DNA of 19,720 nt, from the UHGV virus genome UHGV-0194792. One strand, written 5' to 3'. The DNA is from a virus. Below, one piece after another: positions 8,991 to 19,720 of this stretch. A program made the translations under genes and the position numbers. The notes under the pieces were generated by a model that saw only the letters and a program-made list of their open reading frames with translations, did no database searches and was not told the DNA's origin. Every line of letters starts with the position of its first letter. The first letter of the stretch is position 1.

Positions 8991-9538
8991 TGAGGACGAT
9001 TGAAGCCATGCAGCGACAACTTCTCGGCCTGATTGGGCGGGCAGTGGTGAAAAGCATCAGTGCCGCCACGAAATGTCAGACCGTGGATGTGTCCCTGATT
9101 GCCGGTGAACCCAAAGCCGGGGTTGAACATCTTGAACCCTACGGTTTTACCGCAAGGGCAAACAGCGGTGCGGAAGCGGTGGTGTTGTTTCCGGATGGCG
9201 ACCGTTCTCATGCGGTGGTTGTTACGGTGTCGGACCGGCGCTACCGCATGAAAGGGCTGCAGACGGGGGAGGTGGCTGTCTATGACGATCAGGGGCAGTC
9301 TGTGACGCTGACCCGGGAGGGGATCGTGGTGGACGGTGCAGGTAAAACGATCACGTTTCGCAATGCGCCCAGAGCACGTTTTGAAATGGACCTGGAAGTG
9401 ACCGGACAGGTGAAAGACCTGTGCGACTCCGGCGGCACCACCATGTCAGCGATGCGGCTTGCCTATAACGGCCATCGTCACAGAGAGAACGGTCAGGGCA
9501 GTAACACCGACAAACCGGATAAAGCGATGGAGGCATGA
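8990..9538 (+). CDS. baseplate spike / assembly protein V (Mu gp45-like)
   Basis: 182-aa ORF with AGGAGG RBS. Size and position fit gpV-type spikes. Confidence 0.65.
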   Translation: MRTIEAMQRQLLGLIGRAVVKSISAATKCQTVDVSLIAGEPKAGVEHLEPYGFTARANSGAEAVVLFPDGDRSHAVVVTVSDRRYRMKGLQTGEVAVYDDQGQSVTLTREGIVVDGAGKTITFRNAPRARFEMDLEVTGQVKDLCDSGGTTMSAMRLAYNGHRHRENGQGSNTDKPDKAMEA

Positions 9539-9963
9539 TGGAACTGTGGCTGACGGTGAACGGTAAACGCACCTGCGCCAGCGCACCGCTGGATCCGCTG
9601 ACCCGCGCCGTGGTGATTTCCCTGTTCACCTGGCGGCGGGCGGAGCCTGATGACAATGCCGACGTCCCGATGGGATGGTGGGGGGATACCTGGCCTGCGG
9701 TACAGAATGACCGTTACGGCTCCCGGCTGTGGCTGCTTCAGCGCGGCAAACTGACCAATCAGCTGGTGCAGACGGTAAGGGGGTATATCCGCGAATGCCT
9801 GCAATGGATGATTGATGACGGTGTGGTGTCCCGTATTGATCTGGATATCCGCCGCACCGGGATTAATGAACTGGGTAACAGTATCACTCTCTGGCGTCGT
9901 GACGGACCGGTAATGATTTCTTTTGATGATCTGTGGAGTGCGATAACGCATGGCGGACAGTGA
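9535..9963 (+). CDS. gp46-like baseplate protein
   Basis: 142-aa ORF with GGAGG RBS and ATGATG start, in the Mu gp46 position. Confidence 0.6.
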   Translation: MMELWLTVNGKRTCASAPLDPLTRAVVISLFTWRRAEPDDNADVPMGWWGDTWPAVQNDRYGSRLWLLQRGKLTNQLVQTVRGYIRECLQWMIDDGVVSRIDLDIRRTGINELGNSITLWRRDGPVMISFDDLWSAITHGGQ

Positions 9964-11008
9964 ATTTCAGCGCCCGACGCTGGCAGAAAATATCAGTATG
10001 CTCCGTAACGATTTATTCGCCAGGCTGGACGTCAGCGACACGCTCCGGCGCATGGATGAAGACGTGCGGGCAAAGGTGTATGCGGCGGCGCTGCATACGG
10101 TTTACGGTTACATCGATTATCTGGCAATGAACATGCTGCCTGACCTGTGCGATGAGTCCTGGCTGGCGCGACATGCTGCGATGAAACGGTGTCCGCGCAA
10201 GGGGGCCACGGCTGCCAGCGGGTATATGCGCTGGGAAGGTGTCAGCGATGGCCTGAAGGTGACCGCCGGGAGTGTTATTCAGCGCGATGACCTGGTTCAG
10301 TACACGGCAACTGCCGATGCAACCAGCTCCGGTGGTGTCCTGCGCGTGCCGATCGCCTGCTCAAGTGCAGGCGCGGTCGGTAACGCTGACGACGGTACGT
10401 CATTAATCCTGGTCACGCCGGTGAATGGTCTGCCGTCTTCCGGCGTGGCAGACACTCTGACAGGTGGATTTGATACTGAAGAGCTGGAAACGTGGCGCGC
10501 CCGCGTCATTGAGCGGTATTACTGGACGCCTCAGGGCGGGGCTGACGGGGACTATGTTGTCTGGGCTAAAGAAGTGCCAGGCATTACCCGTGCATGGACA
10601 TACCGCCACTGGATGGGAACGGGGACTGTCGGTGTGATGATTGCCAGCAGTGACCTGATTAATCCCATTCCGGAAGAATCAACGGAAACGGCGGCAAGAC
10701 AACACATTGAGCCACTGGCCCCGGTGGCAGGCTCTGATTTGTATGTATTCAGGCCGGTGGCGCATAAAGTGGATTTTCATATCCGCGTGACGCCGGACAC
10801 ACCGGAAATACGGGCTGCCATCACCGCCGAGTTGCGTTCGTTCCTGCTGCGTGATGGTTATCCGCAGGGAGAACTGAAGGTGTCGCGTATCAGTGAGGCG
10901 ATTTCCGGTGCGAACGGGGAATACAGCCATCAGTTGCTTGCACCGGCGGACAATATCTCCATTGCAAAAAATGAACTGGCGGTACTGGGGACGATTTCAT
11001 GGACGTGA
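9950..11008 (+). CDS. baseplate J-like protein (Mu gp47-like)
   Basis: 352-aa ORF, coupled to its neighbours, in the baseplate J position. Confidence 0.7.
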
Positions 11009-12357: not shown

Positions 12358-12959
12358 TGGATAACGCCGTATTAAATAGCGAGCTTATTGCCACGAAGGC
12401 GGGGAATATTACCGTCTATAACTATGATGGTAAAACTCGGGAATATATTTCTACTTCAAATGAATATCTTGCCATTGGTGTCGGTATCCCTGCATATTCC
12501 TGTCTGGATGAACCTGGTATACATAAGGCGGGTTATGCTATCTGCCGTTCGATGGATTTAAACTCATGGGAATATGTGCCAGACCATCGCGGTGAAATCG
12601 TCTATAACACCGAAACGGGAGACGCCAAAGAAATCACAGCTCCGGGTGATTATCCTGAAAATACAACCACTATCGCCCCGTTAACGCCATTCGATAAATG
12701 GGATGGTAAGAAATGGGTGACCGATACTGAGGCACAGCATAGCGCCGCAGTAGACGCGGCAGAAGCACAGCGTCAGTCACTGATTGATACTGCAATGGCT
12801 TCCATCAGTCTGATTCAACTGAAATTGCAGGCCGGGCGGAAGCTGACGCAGGCAGAAACCACCCGACTTAACGCTGTGCTGGATTACATTGACGCGGTGA
12901 CGGCAACAGATACGAGCACCGCGCCGGATGTCATCTGGCCTGAACTGCCGGAGGCGTAG
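12357..12959 (+). CDS. tail fibre assembly protein (active orientation)
   Basis: 200-aa ORF coupled to the fibre gene (stop/start overlap at 12357) with GAGGG RBS. Its C-terminus resembles that of the opposite-strand assembly gene. Confidence 0.7.
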   Translation: MDNAVLNSELIATKAGNITVYNYDGKTREYISTSNEYLAIGVGIPAYSCLDEPGIHKAGYAICRSMDLNSWEYVPDHRGEIVYNTETGDAKEITAPGDYPENTTTIAPLTPFDKWDGKKWVTDTEAQHSAAVDAAEAQRQSLIDTAMASISLIQLKLQAGRKLTQAETTRLNAVLDYIDAVTATDTSTAPDVIWPELPEA

Positions 12960-13371
12960 GCCATTCAATATCTGGCGCACCGGAAGTATCGACCAGTTCC
13001 AGTGCGTCCAGGTAATCCAGCCACAAATTATATTGCGCCAGTTCGTCACCTTTCAGACGACCAATAGCCGCTTTACCAGGCCATTGTTTACTGTTCATAT
13101 AATCGTTGGCCTGATTAATCAATTGCTGCTTCTCCAGTTCGGCTGCAGCAATTTGTTCCTCATGTGTTGGTGGTGGAATTTCGGACCATGCAGGAAAACC
13201 ATTTTCTCCAGCGATACGGATTTTTCCTTTCGGCGGTAATCCGGAAAACTCAATATACACTTGCTCATCAACTTCAACAGCATCATCTGGCCATGAGTCA
13301 GCTTGAGTGTAATCCTCTTTCATCTCCAGCGGATAGAAAGAGTTTGTAGTCGCGGAATATATGTAATTCAT
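12931..13371 (-). CDS. tail fibre assembly protein (alternative, silent orientation)
   Basis: 146-aa minus-strand ORF with GGAGTG RBS. Its C-terminus (LDYLDALELVDTSGAPDIEWP) parallels that of the + strand assembly protein (LDYIDAVTATDTSTAPDVIWP). It lies 22 nt downstream of the alternative fibre cassette. Confidence 0.7.
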   Translation of the reverse strand: MNYIYSATTNSFYPLEMKEDYTQADSWPDDAVEVDEQVYIEFSGLPPKGKIRIAGENGFPAWSEIPPPTHEEQIAAAELEKQQLINQANDYMNSKQWPGKAAIGRLKGDELAQYNLWLDYLDALELVDTSGAPDIEWPTPPAVQAR

Positions 13372-13392
13372 TTTTCACTCCATATAGCTAAA

Positions 13393-13745
13393 TTAACAGC
13401 CTAACGCTAAAAATGAAGCGCCGAGGCCAGGAGTACTGGCTCTGGATATAAATTTAACCGGGTCGGGACTAAAACCTGCACAGGCAATATAACCAACAGC
13501 CCCGCTATCTGGTGTATAGTCTTGTGAGACCAAAACACGCAGACATCTGTTTGGAAATGCAATTGGGAAATGGGTTACTACATCCTGTGCAATGCCTGGA
13601 GCGCCGATTGAGCCCCACTGAAGAATAAAACCTGATGGTAATTTTTGATATCCAGTACCTGAAACAGAAAGCGTGAAGCTACCCATATCAGGTATCTGAT
13701 TCGCCCCTGTCCCTACATTCCTTTTAGCCGCTTCTCCCAAACCAA
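13393..13745 (-). CDS. promoterless alternative tail-fibre C-terminal cassette
   Basis: The minus-strand frame is continuous with the crossover site: after inversion, ...ENL of the constant part joins [13 protein letters not shown]... in frame. Contains an ILQWGS motif typical of fibre tips. The 13 codons upstream of the site in the track ORF are not expected to be translated. Confidence 0.65.
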
Positions 13746-13757
13746 CGTTTATGAAAA
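13732..13757. other. invertase crossover site, right (hix/gix-like: TTCTCCCAAACC AA CGTTTATGAAAA)
   Basis: Inverted copy of the left site with the same central dinucleotide on the opposite strand. Lies about 55 bp upstream of the invertase start. Confidence 0.7.
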
Positions 13758-13811
13758 TGCAGAAATAACGAGCAAATGGCATCATTCCTGCTTTTGTCAG
13801 GGGGATCTACC

Positions 13812-14366
13812 ATGCTTATTGGCTATGTACGCGTATCAACAAATGACCAGAACACAGATCTACAACGTAATGCGCTGAACTGTGCAGGATGCGAGCTGAT
13901 TTTTGAAGACAAGATAAGCGGCACAAAGTCCGAAAGGCCGGGACTGAAAAAACTGCTCAGGACATTATCGGCAGGTGACACTCTGGTTGTCTGGAAGCTG
14001 GATCGGCTGGGGCGTAGTATGCGGCATCTTGTCGTGTTGGTGGAGGAGTTGCGCGAACGAGGCATCAACTTTCGTAGTCTGACGGATTCAATTGATACCA
14101 GCACACCAATGGGGCGTTTTTTCTTTCATGTGATGGGTGCCCTGGCTGAAATGGAGCGTGAACTGATTGTTGAACGAACAAAAGCTGGACTGGAAGCTGC
14201 TCGCGCACAGGGACGAATTGGTGGACGTCGTCCCAAACTTACACCAGAACAATGGGCGCAGGCCGGACGATTAATTGCAGCAGGAATTCCTCGCCAGAAG
14301 GTGGCGATCATCTATGATGTTGGTGTATCGACACTGTATAAGAAGTTTCCGGTCGGAGATAAATGA
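13812..14366 (+). CDS. serine DNA invertase (Gin/Pin/Hin/Cin family)
   Basis: The N-terminus MLIGYVRVSTNDQNTDLQRNAL with catalytic Ser in VRVST, and blocks such as GDTLVVWKLDRLGRSM and MGRFFFHVMGALAEMERELI, match my recollection of Gin/Pin. ATG at 13812 with a GGGGGA RBS is preferred over the track start at 13776. A C-terminal helix-turn-helix region is present. Confidence 0.9.
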   Translation: MLIGYVRVSTNDQNTDLQRNALNCAGCELIFEDKISGTKSERPGLKKLLRTLSAGDTLVVWKLDRLGRSMRHLVVLVEELRERGINFRSLTDSIDTSTPMGRFFFHVMGALAEMERELIVERTKAGLEAARAQGRIGGRRPKLTPEQWAQAGRLIAAGIPRQKVAIIYDVGVSTLYKKFPVGDK

Positions 14367-14541
14367 AACCGCAGGCTCGTCGTATGCAAGAAAGTGCTGC
14401 GGCTGGCTGGCCAGCTTCTGATAGTGCGAATATTGAATGATTTCCAGCCGTTATCGATTTTACATATTTTTGTATGAGAGGATTTTTACCTCCTCCCACC
14501 TATCCTCCATGACTTTACGCCACTGTCTCTAGGGCTGCTAT

Positions 14542-14556
14542 GTGCCAGAAGCGGAC
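14542..14556 (+). repeat. direct repeat copy 1 (GTGCCAGAAGCGGAC; extended imperfect match about 14531-14570)
   Basis: 15-bp perfect core read directly. The second copy is at 15595-15609. The two copies bracket the HEPN-like gene. Confidence 0.6.
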
Positions 14557-14604
14557 TTCATTAGATTCTTTGTTTTTTGTGTTAATATACTTACAATCCC
14601 ATCA

Positions 14605-15420
14605 TCAACTAACAACCCAATCATCAGATAATATATCACTGATATTGAAAATATAGGTATGGTTATTTTTACCATCTGAAATGACGATTTTTTTTAAGTT
14701 GAATCTTTCTGATATGATATGCGTTGCAAATTGTGGGATTATTAAAAACAAAGCCTCTACCTTACTGATTAATTCAATGTTGACTTTAGGTCTGAAGTTT
14801 GCATCATGAACCACTTTGTGCCTAATGTAAAATGCTTCCTCTATGAGGGCTCTCCAGTCTGGAAATATATTTTCTATCGATAAATCTTGGGAAATTTGGC
14901 CACTCAGACCGCAAGGAGATATATTAGTTGTACATATGTAGTTTAAAAAACTCTCACCCCACATGCCATTATATGCTTCTTCAAGGTCGTTTAAGTTTTG
15001 AAAGTTAAAGCTTTTACTCAATAACTCTGATAGATTTATCTCAGTGTTTATATTGATAGATGTTTCTGTTCTCATTTTAGATAGTAGTGTTGTAATTCTA
15101 GATTCATCAACTGAATGCACGAAAACAAAAACGTCTCTAAAATATGTTTCCCAGCAACTGATTAGAAATACAAAATATTGTCGATATGCTGTTTTATAAA
15201 TATCTATTTTCTTATCTTTCGTTGAAATAAGTGAATGCATAAGTCGACAATTTTCTGCAAAATTTAGTAGGAAAGACATTGAGAAGTCTTCTATAGCTCC
15301 TCTTGATTCGCGAAGAGATAGCAATTCATCAATAATTTTTTTATTGATTTTCCTAATCTTTTTCAATTGCATGCCTCGTTTTTGCTTAAGTAAAGTTGAT
15401 TTTGGAGTTTCGTCAATCAT
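14605..15420 (-). CDS. hypothetical protein with R-x4-H (HEPN-like) motif; possible Abi-type effector
   Basis: 271-aa ORF in a visibly AT-rich segment, rich in Lys/Ile/Asn. Motif RHKVVH at about residue 205 fits the HEPN signature R-[NHQ]-x3-H. The start is uncertain: 15420 has a weak RBS, and an alternative ATG is at 15372. Confidence 0.5.
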   Translation of the reverse strand: MIDETPKSTLLKQKRGMQLKKIRKINKKIIDELLSLRESRGAIEDFSMSFLLNFAENCRLMHSLISTKDKKIDIYKTAYRQYFVFLISCWETYFRDVFVFVHSVDESRITTLLSKMRTETSININTEINLSELLSKSFNFQNLNDLEEAYNGMWGESFLNYICTTNISPCGLSGQISQDLSIENIFPDWRALIEEAFYIRHKVVHDANFRPKVNIELISKVEALFLIIPQFATHIISERFNLKKIVISDGKNNHTYIFNISDILSDDWVVS

Positions 15421-15594
15421 GTTATCTTATTAGATTTAAAGATAAAGTAACTTTTTGCATAAGCTTTGCGACAAAGATAGCTTTAATGAAAGGCCTTATA
15501 GAGCTACTTGGCCATAAAAATTTTTACGATGAATTCGAATTCAGCGTCCGCTCCTCGCTTAAAGCTGTCCTTGGGCCTAACCTACGATAGCTTC

Positions 15595-15609
15595 GTGCCA
15601 GAAGCGGAC
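15595..15609 (+). repeat. direct repeat copy 2 (GTGCCAGAAGCGGAC)
   Basis: Identical 15-mer to 14542-14556. Flanking bases are partly conserved (GCTnnGTGCCAGAAGCGGAC...TAnGAT). Confidence 0.6.
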
Positions 15610-15896
15610 ATTACTAAGATAGTAACGTATCAAACGGTGGGACAAGTCATGCCAAGTGCGGAAGTGGCTAACAACCATCTGTGTTGTTTAACGGGGAACA
15701 GGTCATTCCATTGACCCGATCATTTATGTTGCGCTGACGCTTAGGTGATAAAAAGCCGCCTATGCCCGTCTATCTTTGGGGATCCGCAATGAAGTTGATT
15801 GTGAGGTTATTAGGCTGGGTCTTCTCATTTATAAGTTGTTGAAGTAGCAACGAATTATCGAGCGATTTATCCCGATTAAATGTCTCACTATTACTC

Positions 15897-17021
15897 TTAA
15901 TCGGTAAATTCATAGTTTGGCCGCATTGAGAAACGCCACAGAGGCAGGCCTCCCCCTTTGTAATCATCAGGGATGGTTACCGTGAAAAGTCTGACATTCT
16001 GCCGGGTGTCAACTGACCTGATCTGGCTGTCGTGTACAGTCTGCTCGTTAAAGGCCGACGTGACCAGCGAACTCAGCGTACCTATAAAGTCGAAACCCTG
16101 TCTTTTGTAATTTTCGTCGTCTTCCGGGGAAAATGTGTATCGGATGCTCTCAAGCTGACCATCAGTGAATATTGCCTCCGATCCGGGGCAGAGCCACTCT
16201 CCGTAGCGCATCAGATGAAACGCCGTGTTCATTTCAAATTTATCCGTTACTTGTCTGTCATTGCAGTAAATTTTAATCTCGCCAATTGTAAAATGGGCGA
16301 TGCCTTCGGGACTAACTGAAACTTCTTTGGTCCGGTCGGGGATAAGCTCAAAAACCAGATCGGGTTCTGTTGCTATCGATAGGTCGCCCAGCAGGTACAT
16401 CTCACTTTTTGCGAGCGCCGAGGCCTGCGTCAAGGTATGTTCACGCTCTAGCTCCTTCATTGAGGAGCGTGCAACCAGCGCCCACCGGCGCAGCATCCTG
16501 ATGTAGATGGCATAATAAACTGGAATACCATGGAGCTCACCGTACTTTTCAACCTTATCACTGTACGATTTCTTCAGGCGATAATCGTCAGCCACGTCAT
16601 CCGCGTTAAAGTTTTTTACTTCCACAAAGATCTGACGGCGATCCTTCAGTATAATGCGATAGTCAGGTGCCACCAGATCGGGATCGGCTGACATCAAGTC
16701 TCCGGCGTCTTCCTGTTTAAGAAACTGGCAGTGGTTCAGTGCGGCGCAAACGTGTTTAAATAGGTTTTCTATTCTTTTCCCGTTCAGCAGAATTGGATTC
16801 TGATGGGAAGCGATTAATGACGTGGTGACCTTTTGTATAAAGTCATCCTGGTGCTCGGGGTTTTTAATATCGTAATTATAGATCTGGCCCAACGAGGAAA
16901 AAAGCTCAAAGGCTTCAAATCGTTCGGGATTCCTCTTGATTCTTTCCATTAATGACTCCGCAGCTAATAAATACAACGAAATGAGATCACTTGTTTCTCT
17001 GAAGTTACCTGAAAACTGCAT
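15897..17021 (-). CDS. hypothetical protein with PD-(D/E)xK nuclease-like motif
   Basis: 374-aa ORF. The segment APDYRIILKDRRQIFVEVK carries PD followed 13 residues later by E-V-K, as in restriction-endonuclease-fold active sites. It lies 70 bp downstream of and co-directional with the FRG-like gene. Confidence 0.5.
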   Translation of the reverse strand: MQFSGNFRETSDLISLYLLAAESLMERIKRNPERFEAFELFSSLGQIYNYDIKNPEHQDDFIQKVTTSLIASHQNPILLNGKRIENLFKHVCAALNHCQFLKQEDAGDLMSADPDLVAPDYRIILKDRRQIFVEVKNFNADDVADDYRLKKSYSDKVEKYGELHGIPVYYAIYIRMLRRWALVARSSMKELEREHTLTQASALAKSEMYLLGDLSIATEPDLVFELIPDRTKEVSVSPEGIAHFTIGEIKIYCNDRQVTDKFEMNTAFHLMRYGEWLCPGSEAIFTDGQLESIRYTFSPEDDENYKRQGFDFIGTLSSLVTSAFNEQTVHDSQIRSVDTRQNVRLFTVTIPDDYKGGGLPLWRFSMRPNYEFTD

Positions 17022-17090
17022 TCTGCACGGCGATTAAAGCGGCTATGGGCCCACGCTGGCACACAGGCGTGCCGTGCGACTAAAGCGCTA

Positions 17091-18461
17091 TCAGATTCGT
17101 CCATCGTATAGTTTTGCAATTTCCGTAGCAGCCTTCTCAATGCCGGGGTACACCGTGCTTTCGTTAATGCCAAGGCGGCTCAGTTGCTGCATCAGATGCT
17201 CTTTGTTTCTAATAACAAGCTTTTTGATGTTCAGCGTACTGAGTCCCGTTTCCGGTAGGTCTACGTTTTCACCAAAGAGCAGGAAAGCGCCTGATTGGGA
17301 CGAAATACGTGCGTTACTGAGCCGACCTTTGACCACAACAATTTTACTTAGGTGGACCGGATCGATGATGCTTTTGAAATAGGACTTTTCATCGCGGATC
17401 AGGTGTAGTAGTTGTCCGCACTCTTCAGATTCGTTAAACGCCGGAATGGTGAGATTAGTTTTCAGGCTGCTTTTGAAACGAGAGGGAAGACGGGAAAGAT
17501 TGGCTATGCAACTTACGGTATCCGAGTCGAAAAACTTAATTTCACTTTTGGGCGTCGTCAGAATAATGACGTTCCCGTCAATTTCATGATTATTTTCATC
17601 GTGCTTGATTTTAGAGCAGGCAAAATATAGTGCGATCAAGGGGTTTGTTGATACATCAAGCAGGCGTGTGGGTAGGCCATAGTGTTGCATGCGCACGAGT
17701 TTATCTAGCATATACCGATCGTCTTTGAACTCGGCGGGCTGCACGGTCAGCAGCTCTGTTATCATGTCCGATTCGTGATGGCGGTAGCGATAGTTACCCT
17801 GAGTATCCTTGCGGAACAGTGAGGGTTCCAGTTGGTAGTTGATGTCCGAGTGACCGCGGTAAAATACCTCTTCATCGTTTCCCTGTGTATGATCGAGTAT
17901 CACCTGCAAGTACTGATTGATATTCGCAATGATCTCTAGTTCTTCATTATTCTCCGGTGCTTCCGCACTCGCTGCTGCGGGCTCAACATTAGAATAGCCT
18001 TCAAGGCCTAAAACACGCAGAATCTCATTTACGGAAATCTCTTTGACCGCCCAGAACGTTCTGTTTAGTCCGAAACTGCCCAGCTCCAGCTCACTTACGT
18101 ACTCTTTATCGCTGGTTAAAGGCTTGTAGCCGATATCACTGGTAATCTCATAATCAAACGCTAAAACTTTTTCTCTGTTATACACGGACGTACTTATCTT
18201 GCTGATTTTTCCTAAGCGGATGTGGCTGAAATAACCTATTTTTTCATTATCTTCATCGAATTCAATTTCCGGCTCGGACATAAATACAACGGGCAGTTCC
18301 TGAAGAAAATGATAGGTTTTTTCAGTCAGGGGAAGCAATCTGCTTCTAAGAGACTCTGGCGTGGATTCGAAGAGTCGCGACACAGGGAAAGAGTCATTGC
18401 CACTGGGTTCAGAAAAAAAAGTGTAGTATTTGGGGGTTCCGACAACGATAAGATTCAGCAT
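17091..18461 (-). CDS. FRG-domain-like protein with N- and C-terminal extensions
   Basis: 456-aa ORF with GAGGA RBS 8 nt upstream. Central blocks FYRGHSDINYQLEPSLFR and QHYGLPTRLLDVSTNPLIALYFA match my recollection of the Pfam FRG-domain signature. About 185 residues precede the domain. Confidence 0.55.
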   Translation of the reverse strand: MLNLIVVGTPKYYTFFSEPSGNDSFPVSRLFESTPESLRSRLLPLTEKTYHFLQELPVVFMSEPEIEFDEDNEKIGYFSHIRLGKISKISTSVYNREKVLAFDYEITSDIGYKPLTSDKEYVSELELGSFGLNRTFWAVKEISVNEILRVLGLEGYSNVEPAAASAEAPENNEELEIIANINQYLQVILDHTQGNDEEVFYRGHSDINYQLEPSLFRKDTQGNYRYRHHESDMITELLTVQPAEFKDDRYMLDKLVRMQHYGLPTRLLDVSTNPLIALYFACSKIKHDENNHEIDGNVIILTTPKSEIKFFDSDTVSCIANLSRLPSRFKSSLKTNLTIPAFNESEECGQLLHLIRDEKSYFKSIIDPVHLSKIVVVKGRLSNARISSQSGAFLLFGENVDLPETGLSTLNIKKLVIRNKEHLMQQLSRLGINESTVYPGIEKAATEIAKLYDGRI

Positions 18462-19000
18462 ACTTGCGATCCTCGCATAAGTTAAGTTTCTCTCTCATCA
18501 TGCCAGACTTGATAATTATTTAAACATCAGCGCTGCTATTTATATTTCACACCTTTTTGAGCCGAAACGACACTGCCATCGGTAAGCCCGGATGATACAT
18601 TCTGAAAATTCATCAGAAAAATTTACATCACGCTTTACTCCTGACGTATATCAGCACTAACGTGCCATTGCGCACGCGCTAGCTATTTAGTAGCGCGTTT
18701 CGGCGAAAAGAGATTCGGTAGTCAATGACTATATTTCGCTCATAACAGACATTCACTACAGTTGTGGCAGAAAGGTATGCATGCTGGGTGTGGGGAAGTC
18801 GTGAAAGAAAAGAAGACTGCAGTGCCGTTTGTCGTTACGTTTATCTTCATTGGCTATGCAAGTCGTAATACAAGGTGGGACAAAACTGAGACATATAAGG
18901 CCTCGCAATGGCTTGCAAGGCTTTACATGTTTTGATGTGGTGGGACGTGTGAGCGCAGTGTTGATGGGGTAATGCTTTGAATTAGAAGCGGATTCTTATA

Positions 19001-19046
19001 ATTCGTAATGCGAAGGTCGTAGGTTCGACTCCTATTATCGGCACCA
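19001..19046 (+). other. thrW: prophage attachment-site repeat (attR): 3' 46 nt of a tRNA-Thr gene, including T-arm and CCA end
   Basis: ATTCGTAATGCGAAGGTCGTAGGTTCGACTCCTATTATCGGCACCA matches the 3' part of E. coli tRNA-Thr (CGU) as I recall it, with a canonical GGTTCGACTCC T-arm. No matching 5' half is present upstream, so this is a partial copy and not a gene. Confidence 0.65.
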
Positions 19047-19643
19047 TTTAAATCAATAAGTTATCTCACATTTAAGTAAACTACGTTCTCCTCTTGTGCC
19101 TTTGATTTTGCTCGCGTGCGCGGTGAAATGCCTGACTGAAAGGTGAGCATATCGACGAACCATTTCGAGAGTTTCCCATCTGCTCATTTTTAAGTGCAAG
19201 CAGGAAAACACCGGACTAAACCAATCAGCTGTTCGAAAATGGCAAGCGGATTAATATGCCATGGCGGGGCAGCTTTGAGCCGCACGCATGGGGTGTGGCA
19301 AGCCTGATGGATTTTGCTGTGCCTGTGGTGGCGTGTTTGCTGGTTTGGCTGTTGGTTAAACGCGAAAGTCATAATGCCAGGGGAATACCGCAGGGTGTTC
19401 AGGTTTTGCATAAAAAAGCCCACCATTAAGGTGGGCAAAAGGAATGATTTATATTCTCTGAGAGAAACATTACATTTCTCCTTGTCACTTCTAACATAAA
19501 AATATGGAGAAATAATGGAGCTTATATTAATTGGCGATTAGGTAACCATGTGGTTATACAAAACAATACAGTTCTTTACATTTGCCTTGTTTTATGAATA
19601 CTCCTGAAGAGGTGTACAACATAATTAAACAAACAGGGTAAAT

Positions 19644-19720
19644 ATGAATATATTTGAACAAACTCCACCGAACCGCAGACGTTATGGTCTTGCTGCATTC
19701 ATTGGGCTGATTGCTGGCGT
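19644..19720 (+). CDS. yagU: chromosomal flank: N-terminus of a YagU-like inner membrane protein (3' end outside window)
   Basis: [25 protein letters not shown] matches my recollection of the E. coli YagU N-terminus. AGGG RBS upstream. The partial ORF runs off the window end. Confidence 0.45.

Follow-up and report, generated by a model that had tools for sequence, protein, structure and literature searches.

A candidate single-gene defence nuclease of the PD-(D/E)xK type in the cargo slot of an SfV-like Escherichia coli prophage

The Hjc/Hje and RecU resolvases (Pfam Hjc, PF01870; PDB 2wcw, 1gef, 1hh1, 1ob8 and 1y1o) are products of core recombination genes, and Hjc is a single domain of 120–140 residues. 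An Hjc-like PD-(D/E)xK domain, of the NOV_C (DUF3883) type, has also been described as an anti-phage effector in HmaA of Halomonas (PMC11232893), a protein of more than 1,100 residues in which a Snf2 helicase is followed by a C-terminal nuclease. PD-(D/E)xK nucleases in defence hotspots are a familiar theme. FRG proteins are placed in the ADP-ribosyltransferase superfamily and are proposed to be NADases or signal-generating enzymes, with an NAD-related role (PMC9503650); their part in immunity is only predicted, and they are catalogued by PADLOC as the candidate single-gene system PDC-S15. Here we describe a prophage gene, adjacent to an FRG gene, whose product joins an Hjc/RecU-type nuclease domain to a second domain specific to its family.

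The window, a stretch of 19,720 nucleotides of the virus genome UHGV-0194792, consists of the right end of an SfV/SfI/SfII-like (e14-like) E. coli prophage together with its late region. It is 100% identical to a record of E. coli strain ECONIH1, beside yagU, and its tail genes are 97–98% identical to those of the Shigella phages SfII, SfI and SfV. The tail-fibre genes and the pin invertase are followed by three minus-strand genes, for a HEPN-like protein, the nuclease and the FRG protein; beyond the FRG gene come a frameshifted integrase remnant and then yagU. The region between the pin invertase and the attachment site is the variable slot of this SfV/e14-like prophage, and in related Sf phages the equivalent slot is occupied by the O-antigen genes gtrABC. 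The genes of the slot are the following.

13776-14366, plus strand: pin invertase, after the tail-fibre genes
14605..15420, minus strand: third member of the E. coli cassette, encoding a HEPN-like protein of 271 aa with an RHKVVH motif; its match to HEPN_RiboL-PSP (E 7.8e-6) falls short of the gathering score
15897..16949, minus strand: nuclease coding sequence, 350 aa plus stop, identical to WP_024176454.1; the start is that called by PGAP, and homologues start at the same Met
16950..17090, minus strand: spacer of 141 bp from the FRG stop to the nuclease start, with a short GC hairpin that has no T-run
17091..18461, minus strand: FRG-domain gene, 456 aa, PADLOC candidate single-gene system PDC-S15 (Pfam FRG, E 4.7e-22)

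The E. coli cassette also occurs in the unrelated lambdoid phage PhiR11_1. The HEPN-like gene, with a GC content of 30–34%, is shared only with that phage; its GC content is low and its origin separate. A search of Rfam with positions 14300–19720, including the gap of 476 bp on the 3' side of the nuclease gene, gave no match. According to the annotation of the identical record, the replication module of the same prophage already contains a RusA resolvase. The nuclease is therefore cargo and not the phage's own resolvase.

The open reading frame reported in an earlier note at 15897–17021 on the minus strand, containing the segment PDYRIILKDRRQIFVEVK, is present as claimed. Its 5' end requires correction. 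In every relative the protein starts at the Met numbered 25 in the 374-aa reading frame; homologues cover only 94% of the 374-aa query. Two features near this Met bear on the choice of start.

16956..16959, minus strand: ribosome-binding site GGAG, invariant in the orthologue alignment and placed 6 nt upstream of the ATG at 16949
16950..17021, minus strand: 5' extension of the maximal reading frame, with no Shine-Dalgarno sequence before the ATG at 17021

The ATG at 16949 and its ribosome-binding site are kept in four lineages (E. coli, Kluyvera, Serratia and a metagenome contig). The Serratia and ENA orthologous loci lack the ATG at 17021. Judged from these sequences, the extension is probably not translated. 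With the start placed at 16949, the protein has 350 residues, the catalytic pair is E110/K112 (E134/K136 in the 374-aa frame) in place of the approximate E139/K141 given earlier, and the distance from the FRG stop to the nuclease start is 141 bp and not 70 bp. On the minus strand of this spacer, no sigma-70-like or other promoter-like site and no terminator-like site was scored.

The corrected protein is divided into a nuclease domain and a C-terminal domain, placed as follows.

16470..16796, minus strand: PD-(D/E)xK core, residues 52–160, made of the GKRxE helix, three strands, a helix and a strand
16614..16667, minus strand: catalytic segment P95-D96 ... E110-V111-K112 (PDYRIILKDRRQIFVEVK), conserved across the family
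15900..16457, minus strand: family-specific C-terminal alpha/beta domain, residues 165–350, with G188, D189, E239, W252, S293 and T304 near-invariant

The motif string alone is weak evidence for a nuclease, because PD-x(8-25)-[DE]xK is found in 14% of composition-matched shuffles of the protein and a second, non-conserved instance occurs at residue 204. This second PD...ExK-like string was rejected as a chance match: D205 is conserved at 79%, but the [DE]xK part is not conserved. The restriction-endonuclease-like fold proposed in the earlier note is confirmed, together with an intact active site, by conservation across the family and by the predicted structure. In 169 homologues with a median identity of 31%, D96 is conserved at 100% and both E110 and K112 at 99%, with similar values for G57, F64, E80, D81, Y136 and W156. 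The near-invariant active site consists of E61 in the first helix, D96, E110 and K112, accompanied by the invariant pair E80-D81. In the AlphaFold2 model (pLDDT 91, pTM 0.87), residues 8–71 form three helices, the last of which has a GKRxE motif resembling that in the first catalytic helix of Hjc. The core strands and helix follow at residues 74–160, and the catalytic residues lie on strands 97–101 and 106–114. The model has the alpha-beta-beta-beta-alpha-beta core of the PD-(D/E)xK superfamily, with the conserved Asp on strand 2 and the conserved (D/E)xK on strand 3. A Foldseek search against viral predicted structures (BFVD) returned Hjc/RecU resolvases, which match the nuclease domain only; this likeness may reflect just the minimal nuclease core and not junction specificity. 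Going by the modelled fold and its residues, the protein is very probably an active nuclease.

The C-terminal region, described earlier as 230 uncharacterised residues, comprises about 186 (165–350). It is present in every family member, in fixed fusion to the N-terminal nuclease. G188, D189, W252 and S293 are conserved at 98–99% in the 169 homologues, E239 at 92% and T304 at 93%. In the structural model this half appears as a well-predicted domain without a detectable structural relative. No modified-base reader domain (SRA, EVE/PUA, YTH or winged helix) was recognised in the protein, nor was SAVED, CARF or another known nucleotide-sensor domain.

The family is large and widely spread. A search of 5.8 billion proteins gave 43 clusters of full-length relatives, and an exhaustive profile search of 1.84 billion representatives gave 1,181 clusters (50% identity) at E <= 1e-3, with 536 at E <= 1e-30. 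Nearly all members from the profile search are 335–375 aa long and align end to end; in the longer ones, P0128 and P0140 among them, no fused domain could be recognised. When a single genome of each species was scanned, 58 loci were found, in Proteobacteria, Acidobacteria, Gemmatimonadetes, Planctomycetes, Verrucomicrobia, Firmicutes and others. Copies of at least 90% identity are present in Escherichia, Klebsiella, Enterobacter, Morganella, Proteus, Providencia and Kluyvera. Within E. coli the distribution is patchy and on mobile elements (28 carriers among 5,426 complete genomes). Only two of 50,697 phage records contain the nuclease, both of them PhiR11_1, and eight of ten IMG/VR matches fall in segments whose first base is also that of the viral contig. 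As for phage phenotypes, the reported phage sensitivity of ECOR13 was considered as evidence and dropped, since the records do not show the cassette to be native to that strain.

No family model of Pfam, NCBIfam, PHROGs or PADLOC matches the nuclease, and the family profile finds nothing among PDB sequences even at E 10. When 40 relatives were scanned singly, only sub-threshold matches to NOV_C, Hjc and PDDEXK_10 appeared. Matches to PADLOC-DB 2.0 were at chance level (PDC-S05, E 0.013; PDC-M37A, E 0.007, in one of the 40 relatives). Public names are all 'hypothetical protein', except for one UniRef entry called 'Restriction endonuclease'. Our search of the literature, which included the topics FRG/PDC-S15, Hjc in anti-phage defence and PhiR11_1, found no publication on this family.

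The cognate methyltransferase that stands beside the nuclease in a Type II restriction-modification system is missing here. The 100%-identical E. coli record has none annotated in the part that matches the window, and none was found among 20 tightly linked neighbours of family members scanned singly; among 107 immediate neighbours, too, no methyltransferase family ranks in the 25 commonest Pfam families. The same prophage does carry two orphan DNA methyltransferases outside the window, 25–30 kb upstream, one of them an N6-adenine enzyme, in the early and lysis-proximal regions. These are ordinary orphan phage methylases with no family-level tie to the nuclease. The statement in the earlier note that this is not a classical restriction-modification pair therefore holds, both in the window and across the family loci, where no neighbour is conserved.

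We asked what surrounds the gene elsewhere. Clustering of reading frames within 5 kb on either side of 60 loci gave no family common to more than four loci, and so no conserved partner; the same loci have no conserved small downstream reading frame that could be an antitoxin, nor did the clustering bring out a methyltransferase. A conserved neighbour of any kind is absent from the 58 species loci and about 16 further loci. The 107 immediate neighbours, annotated with Pfam and PADLOC, are a mixed set with a mobile-element and defence flavour: GajA/OLD-type ATPases, UvrD helicases, AbiEii, GmrSD_N, TIR and mad3, together with FRG, T5orf172, IS110 transposases and resolvases. Known defence models are matched by only about a tenth of them. 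The tightly linked neighbours on the same strand all differ (T5orf172, ScpB, HNH, DUF4365, DUF2971, SnoaL-like, a GTPase, or unrecognisable). Some loci look like housekeeping regions, such as those of two alphaproteobacteria in which the nuclease follows scpB. Other copies occupy varied mobile settings: in Pectobacterium an integrative conjugative element, in Raoultella the place immediately behind GajA/GajB-like genes, in Serratia a defence island with TerB, BrxC-D and helicase genes, in Serratia quinivorans a conjugative element, where TraC and TraU flank the gene, and in Morganella a prophage, where it adjoins the tail-fibre genes. The DNA becomes homologous to the Pectobacterium and Raoultella copies only 25–38 bp upstream of the start codon, and this short shared flank indicates that the gene moves as a single-gene unit. 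The genomic profile is that of an accessory, horizontally mobile and self-sufficient gene.

The recurrent neighbour in Enterobacterales is FRG. The FRG protein of the window matches PDC-S15 with E 8e-99 over residues 171–452, and phrog_4962 covers its full length. Both genes are present in all 28 E. coli carriers, where the whole cassette is kept at 99% identity or more. The order FRG-then-nuclease is retained in E. coli, Kluyvera, Serratia and two metagenome contigs, in five different flanking contexts, and the two genes diverge in parallel (FRG 75–98%, nuclease 78–97%). Another FRG lineage, 40% identical, stands back to back with a nuclease relative of 69% identity, and a third, 25% identical, stands tail to tail with one of 41% identity; two of the three FRG-lineage associations are thus on opposite strands. 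This recurrent adjacency to three FRG lineages suggests that the nuclease may not always act alone. FRG also adjoins the nuclease in four of the eight homologue clusters whose contigs were looked up, and in two IMG/VR copies of the E. coli cassette. Among the species loci it does so in two of 58, Kluyvera and Aliidiomarina, and is absent from the other 56. In all, about 60 of the more distant loci have no FRG. It is likewise absent beside the close homologues of Pectobacterium (83% identity) and Raoultella (82%), at the Morganella and Serratia quinivorans loci, and in the eight IMG/VR loci other than the copies of the E. coli cassette. Conversely, full-length FRG without the nuclease is found in 18 E. 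coli genomes (76–80% DNA identity), in the P2-like phage P22H1 and in phage Tritos. The two genes are co-inherited within the clade that has both, but do not co-occur consistently across the family. In our reading the association exceeds chance but is facultative, and the two genes do not make up a fixed system; they may travel together, act as synergistic modules or be optional partners. Of the two-gene operon suggested earlier, with the nuclease as effector, the shared direction, the co-divergence, the 28 of 28 E. coli carriers and the spacer with no scored promoter or terminator stand. Because each gene is also found alone, an obligate system with the nuclease as 'the effector' is not shown.

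Based on these observations, we consider the protein most likely to be an autonomous, methyltransferase-independent DNA endonuclease carried as prophage cargo and protecting the lysogen against other phages or mobile DNA, a reading to which we give about even chances as a whole. Taken separately, its independence of FRG is fairly likely, and a role in defence, argued only from guilt by association, is somewhat more probable than the full reading. A system in which FRG senses infection and activates the nuclease, either by contacting it directly or by way of an NAD-derived small molecule that the C-terminal domain binds, seems unlikely to us. It would account for the unbroken pairing in E. coli, for the conserved order and co-divergence down to 65–78% identity between different flanks, for the independent lineages (40% and 25% identity) that adjoin family members, and for the 141-bp spacer with no scored promoter or terminator, and it would suit the NAD-related role proposed for FRG (PMC9503650). 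It fits poorly with the nuclease genes that have no FRG (Pectobacterium, Raoultella, 56 of 58 species loci and eight IMG/VR loci), with the solitary FRG genes of the 18 E. coli genomes, P22H1 and Tritos, with the single-gene listing in PADLOC and with the opposite strands in two of three associations; a GAF/PAS resemblance was below significance. More speculative still, and quite improbable, is an elaboration in which the Enterobacterales FRG and nuclease form a new signalling immune pair: FRG would make an NAD-derived signal, the C-terminal domain would be its receptor and the Hjc-like cutter would be switched on, while stand-alone members would sense other cues through the same domain.

Two other readings keep the nuclease on its own. 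A Type IV, modification-dependent enzyme, whose C-terminal domain would read a modified base (T-even-type or foreign methylation) while the N-terminal domain cuts nearby, is a specific form of the autonomous-nuclease model. The solitary nuclease without a methyltransferase, the fixed order of nuclease and second domain and the GmrSD-type genes among the neighbours agree with it, and mcrA, which encodes a Type IV enzyme, occupies the corresponding place after pinE in the K-12 prophage e14. Since no similarity to a reader fold was detected, however, we think this specific form rather improbable. A selfish gene, either a free-standing homing-type endonuclease or a nuclease for element maintenance or recombination, would owe its spread to the cleavage of empty sites or the resolution of element DNA and bring the host no benefit. 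The single-gene unit with very short shared flanks in many unrelated contexts, and the insertions tight behind housekeeping genes such as scpB, are what such a gene might leave. Against it, the gene is rare in sequenced phages (the two PhiR11_1 records among 50,697), is not found within introns or inteins, and occupies cargo slots and defence islands and not sites between conserved essential phage genes; the prophage, moreover, already encodes RusA. We regard selfish spread as very unlikely.

For the autonomous endonuclease, we propose the following mechanism. The N-terminal Hjc/RecU-type domain would cut DNA in a metal-dependent manner through D96, E110 and K112 and, by analogy with Hjc and RecU, would probably work as a dimer. 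The C-terminal domain may stand in for what a methyltransferase supplies in restriction-modification systems; we infer such a targeting or restraining role from its obligatory presence, its own cluster of conserved polar residues and the lack of a partner gene. It might recognise a feature of foreign DNA, such as a modification or a branched replication or recombination intermediate, or it might keep the nuclease inactive in the absence of an infection cue. The outcome would be either direct cutting of invading DNA, in a Type IV-like or structure-specific manner, or death of the infected cell. In this prophage the nuclease gene is probably read through from the FRG promoter, yet its product would work without FRG.

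The interest lies less in the catalytic half than in the family as a whole. More than 1,000 clusters at 50% identity, in many bacterial phyla, share a fixed two-domain design that no Pfam, NCBIfam, PHROGs or PADLOC model covers, and half of the protein appears to be a domain without a detectable structural relative that has near-invariant polar residues of its own. Also less ordinary is the adjacency to FRG proteins, repeated and not constant. The nuclease is a testable candidate for a new single-gene defence system. Were it to protect alone, a widespread system would be added, and how a nuclease with neither methylase nor ATPase tells self from non-self would become a concrete question; were it to need FRG, it would be the first defined partner of that protein. 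The locus also indicates that the gtr slot of SfV-like prophages, used for O-antigen conversion, doubles as a slot for what is probably defence cargo.

Compared with known systems, the protein is nearest to Hjc/Hje and RecU, at an identity of only 7–14%. The protein of the window does not match PF01870, and three of 40 relatives do so marginally (E >= 0.042). Whereas Hjc is one small domain, the nuclease here has three extra N-terminal helices and a C-terminal domain of 186 residues, and its gene is accessory, borne by mobile elements and not part of the core recombination set. With a sequence model that is not matched, and with a different architecture and biology, the protein falls outside the Hjc family. 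Unlike HmaA, it lacks an ATPase or helicase and carries the nuclease at its N-terminal end; the NOV_C matches of four of 40 relatives are marginal and below threshold (E >= 0.035). The FRG neighbour is a clear member of PDC-S15 and often travels with the nuclease in Enterobacterales, but the definition of that system comprises one gene only, and the nuclease lies outside its model set. By sequence, the nuclease is outside every defence system catalogued in PADLOC 2.0. The signal-activated nuclease effectors Cap4, NucC and Card1/Can are characterised by SAVED, CARF or another known nucleotide-sensor domain, and none was recognised in the protein here; if FRG and nuclease were a signalling pair, the logic would be comparable to that of Thoeris and CBASS, built from entirely different parts. 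PvuRts1I and AbaSI are alike in having an N-terminal nuclease followed by a second domain and in being solitary, without a methyltransferase, although their C-terminal domain is a reader to which no similarity was detected. McrA, in the e14 slot, offers the same likeness of a solitary nuclease without a methyltransferase, and like the protein described here it is carried in the cargo slot of a prophage.

Two further lineages of FRG protein adjoin members of the nuclease family, which points to repeated, independent association of FRG and nuclease genes:

1432–2856 of locus L075, minus strand: FRG protein, 40% identical to the window FRG protein
9236–10447 of the Aliidiomarina locus L010, minus strand: FRG protein, 25% identical to the window FRG protein

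In both loci the FRG gene and the nuclease family member lie on opposite strands. The window FRG protein (17091–18461, minus strand) is covered over its full length by phrog_4962. The PDC-S15 models span only residues 171–452, and residues 1–170 therefore form an N-terminal domain outside those models. Full-length homologues of the FRG protein also occur solo, in 18 E. coli genomes and in two phages, Tritos and the P2-like P22H1. Strain ECCHD184 of E. coli has a solo FRG gene (protein identity 78%) at a distance of about 4 kb from a pinE gene. The interval holds a capsid-gene remnant and a GIY-YIG gene of the LEM-3-like type, with a DEAD/DEAH helicase gene to the other side. In this strain, pinE appears to have other nuclease-type cargo in its vicinity.

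The nuclease family also includes a 519-residue member, P0128, with an N-terminal extension of 188 residues. Because D96 and K112 of the active site (numbering of the window nuclease) are replaced by Ser and Ile, P0128 may be a catalytically dead, repurposed member. In a Raoultella locus (L066, 2088–7053), a GajA-like gene (AAA_15/AAA_21/OLD-TOPRIM) and a GajB-like gene (UvrD) precede the nuclease gene in the same orientation and are separated from it by 104 bp. A few other nuclease loci also have OLD/GajA-type neighbors.

Two features lie downstream of the nuclease gene in the window:

15421–15896: 476-bp gap following the nuclease gene
14605–15420, minus strand: HEPN-like gene, 271 residues, GC content only 30–34%

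Rfam gave no match in the gap, and the 100%-identical record has no gene annotated there. Homology to the Kluyvera locus runs past the nuclease coding sequence and about 300 bp into the gap, to 15590. The 271-residue protein weakly matches HEPN_RiboL-PSP (E = 7.8e-6, below threshold) and carries RHKVVH, an Rx4H motif, at residue 200, suggesting that it is possibly a HEPN RNase. Only E. coli and phage PhiR11_1 have this gene together with the FRG-nuclease pair; in Kluyvera and Serratia the pair lacks it.

Outside the window, the same prophage (L074) carries two orphan DNA methyltransferases, one N6-adenine and one of unspecified type, in its early and lysis-proximal regions:

5624–6277 of L074: orphan DNA methyltransferase
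10903–11955 of L074: orphan DNA methyltransferase

The methyltransferase absence described in the earlier note therefore holds for the window and not for the whole element. The window integrase is annotated as a remnant, and the prophage may have lost the ability to excise. This remnant and an invertible segment elsewhere in the window are located as follows:

19061–19215, minus strand: integrase remnant by yagU, annotated as frameshifted and N-terminally truncated
12931–14366: invertible tail-fiber segment, fiber genes inverted and adjoining the pinE invertase
12931–13371, minus strand: tail-fiber assembly gene, inverted orientation
13393–13785, minus strand: gp53-like fiber-tip gene, inverted orientation
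13776–14366, plus strand: pinE invertase

The segment at 12931–14366 resembles the host-range switches of e14 and of the Mu type.
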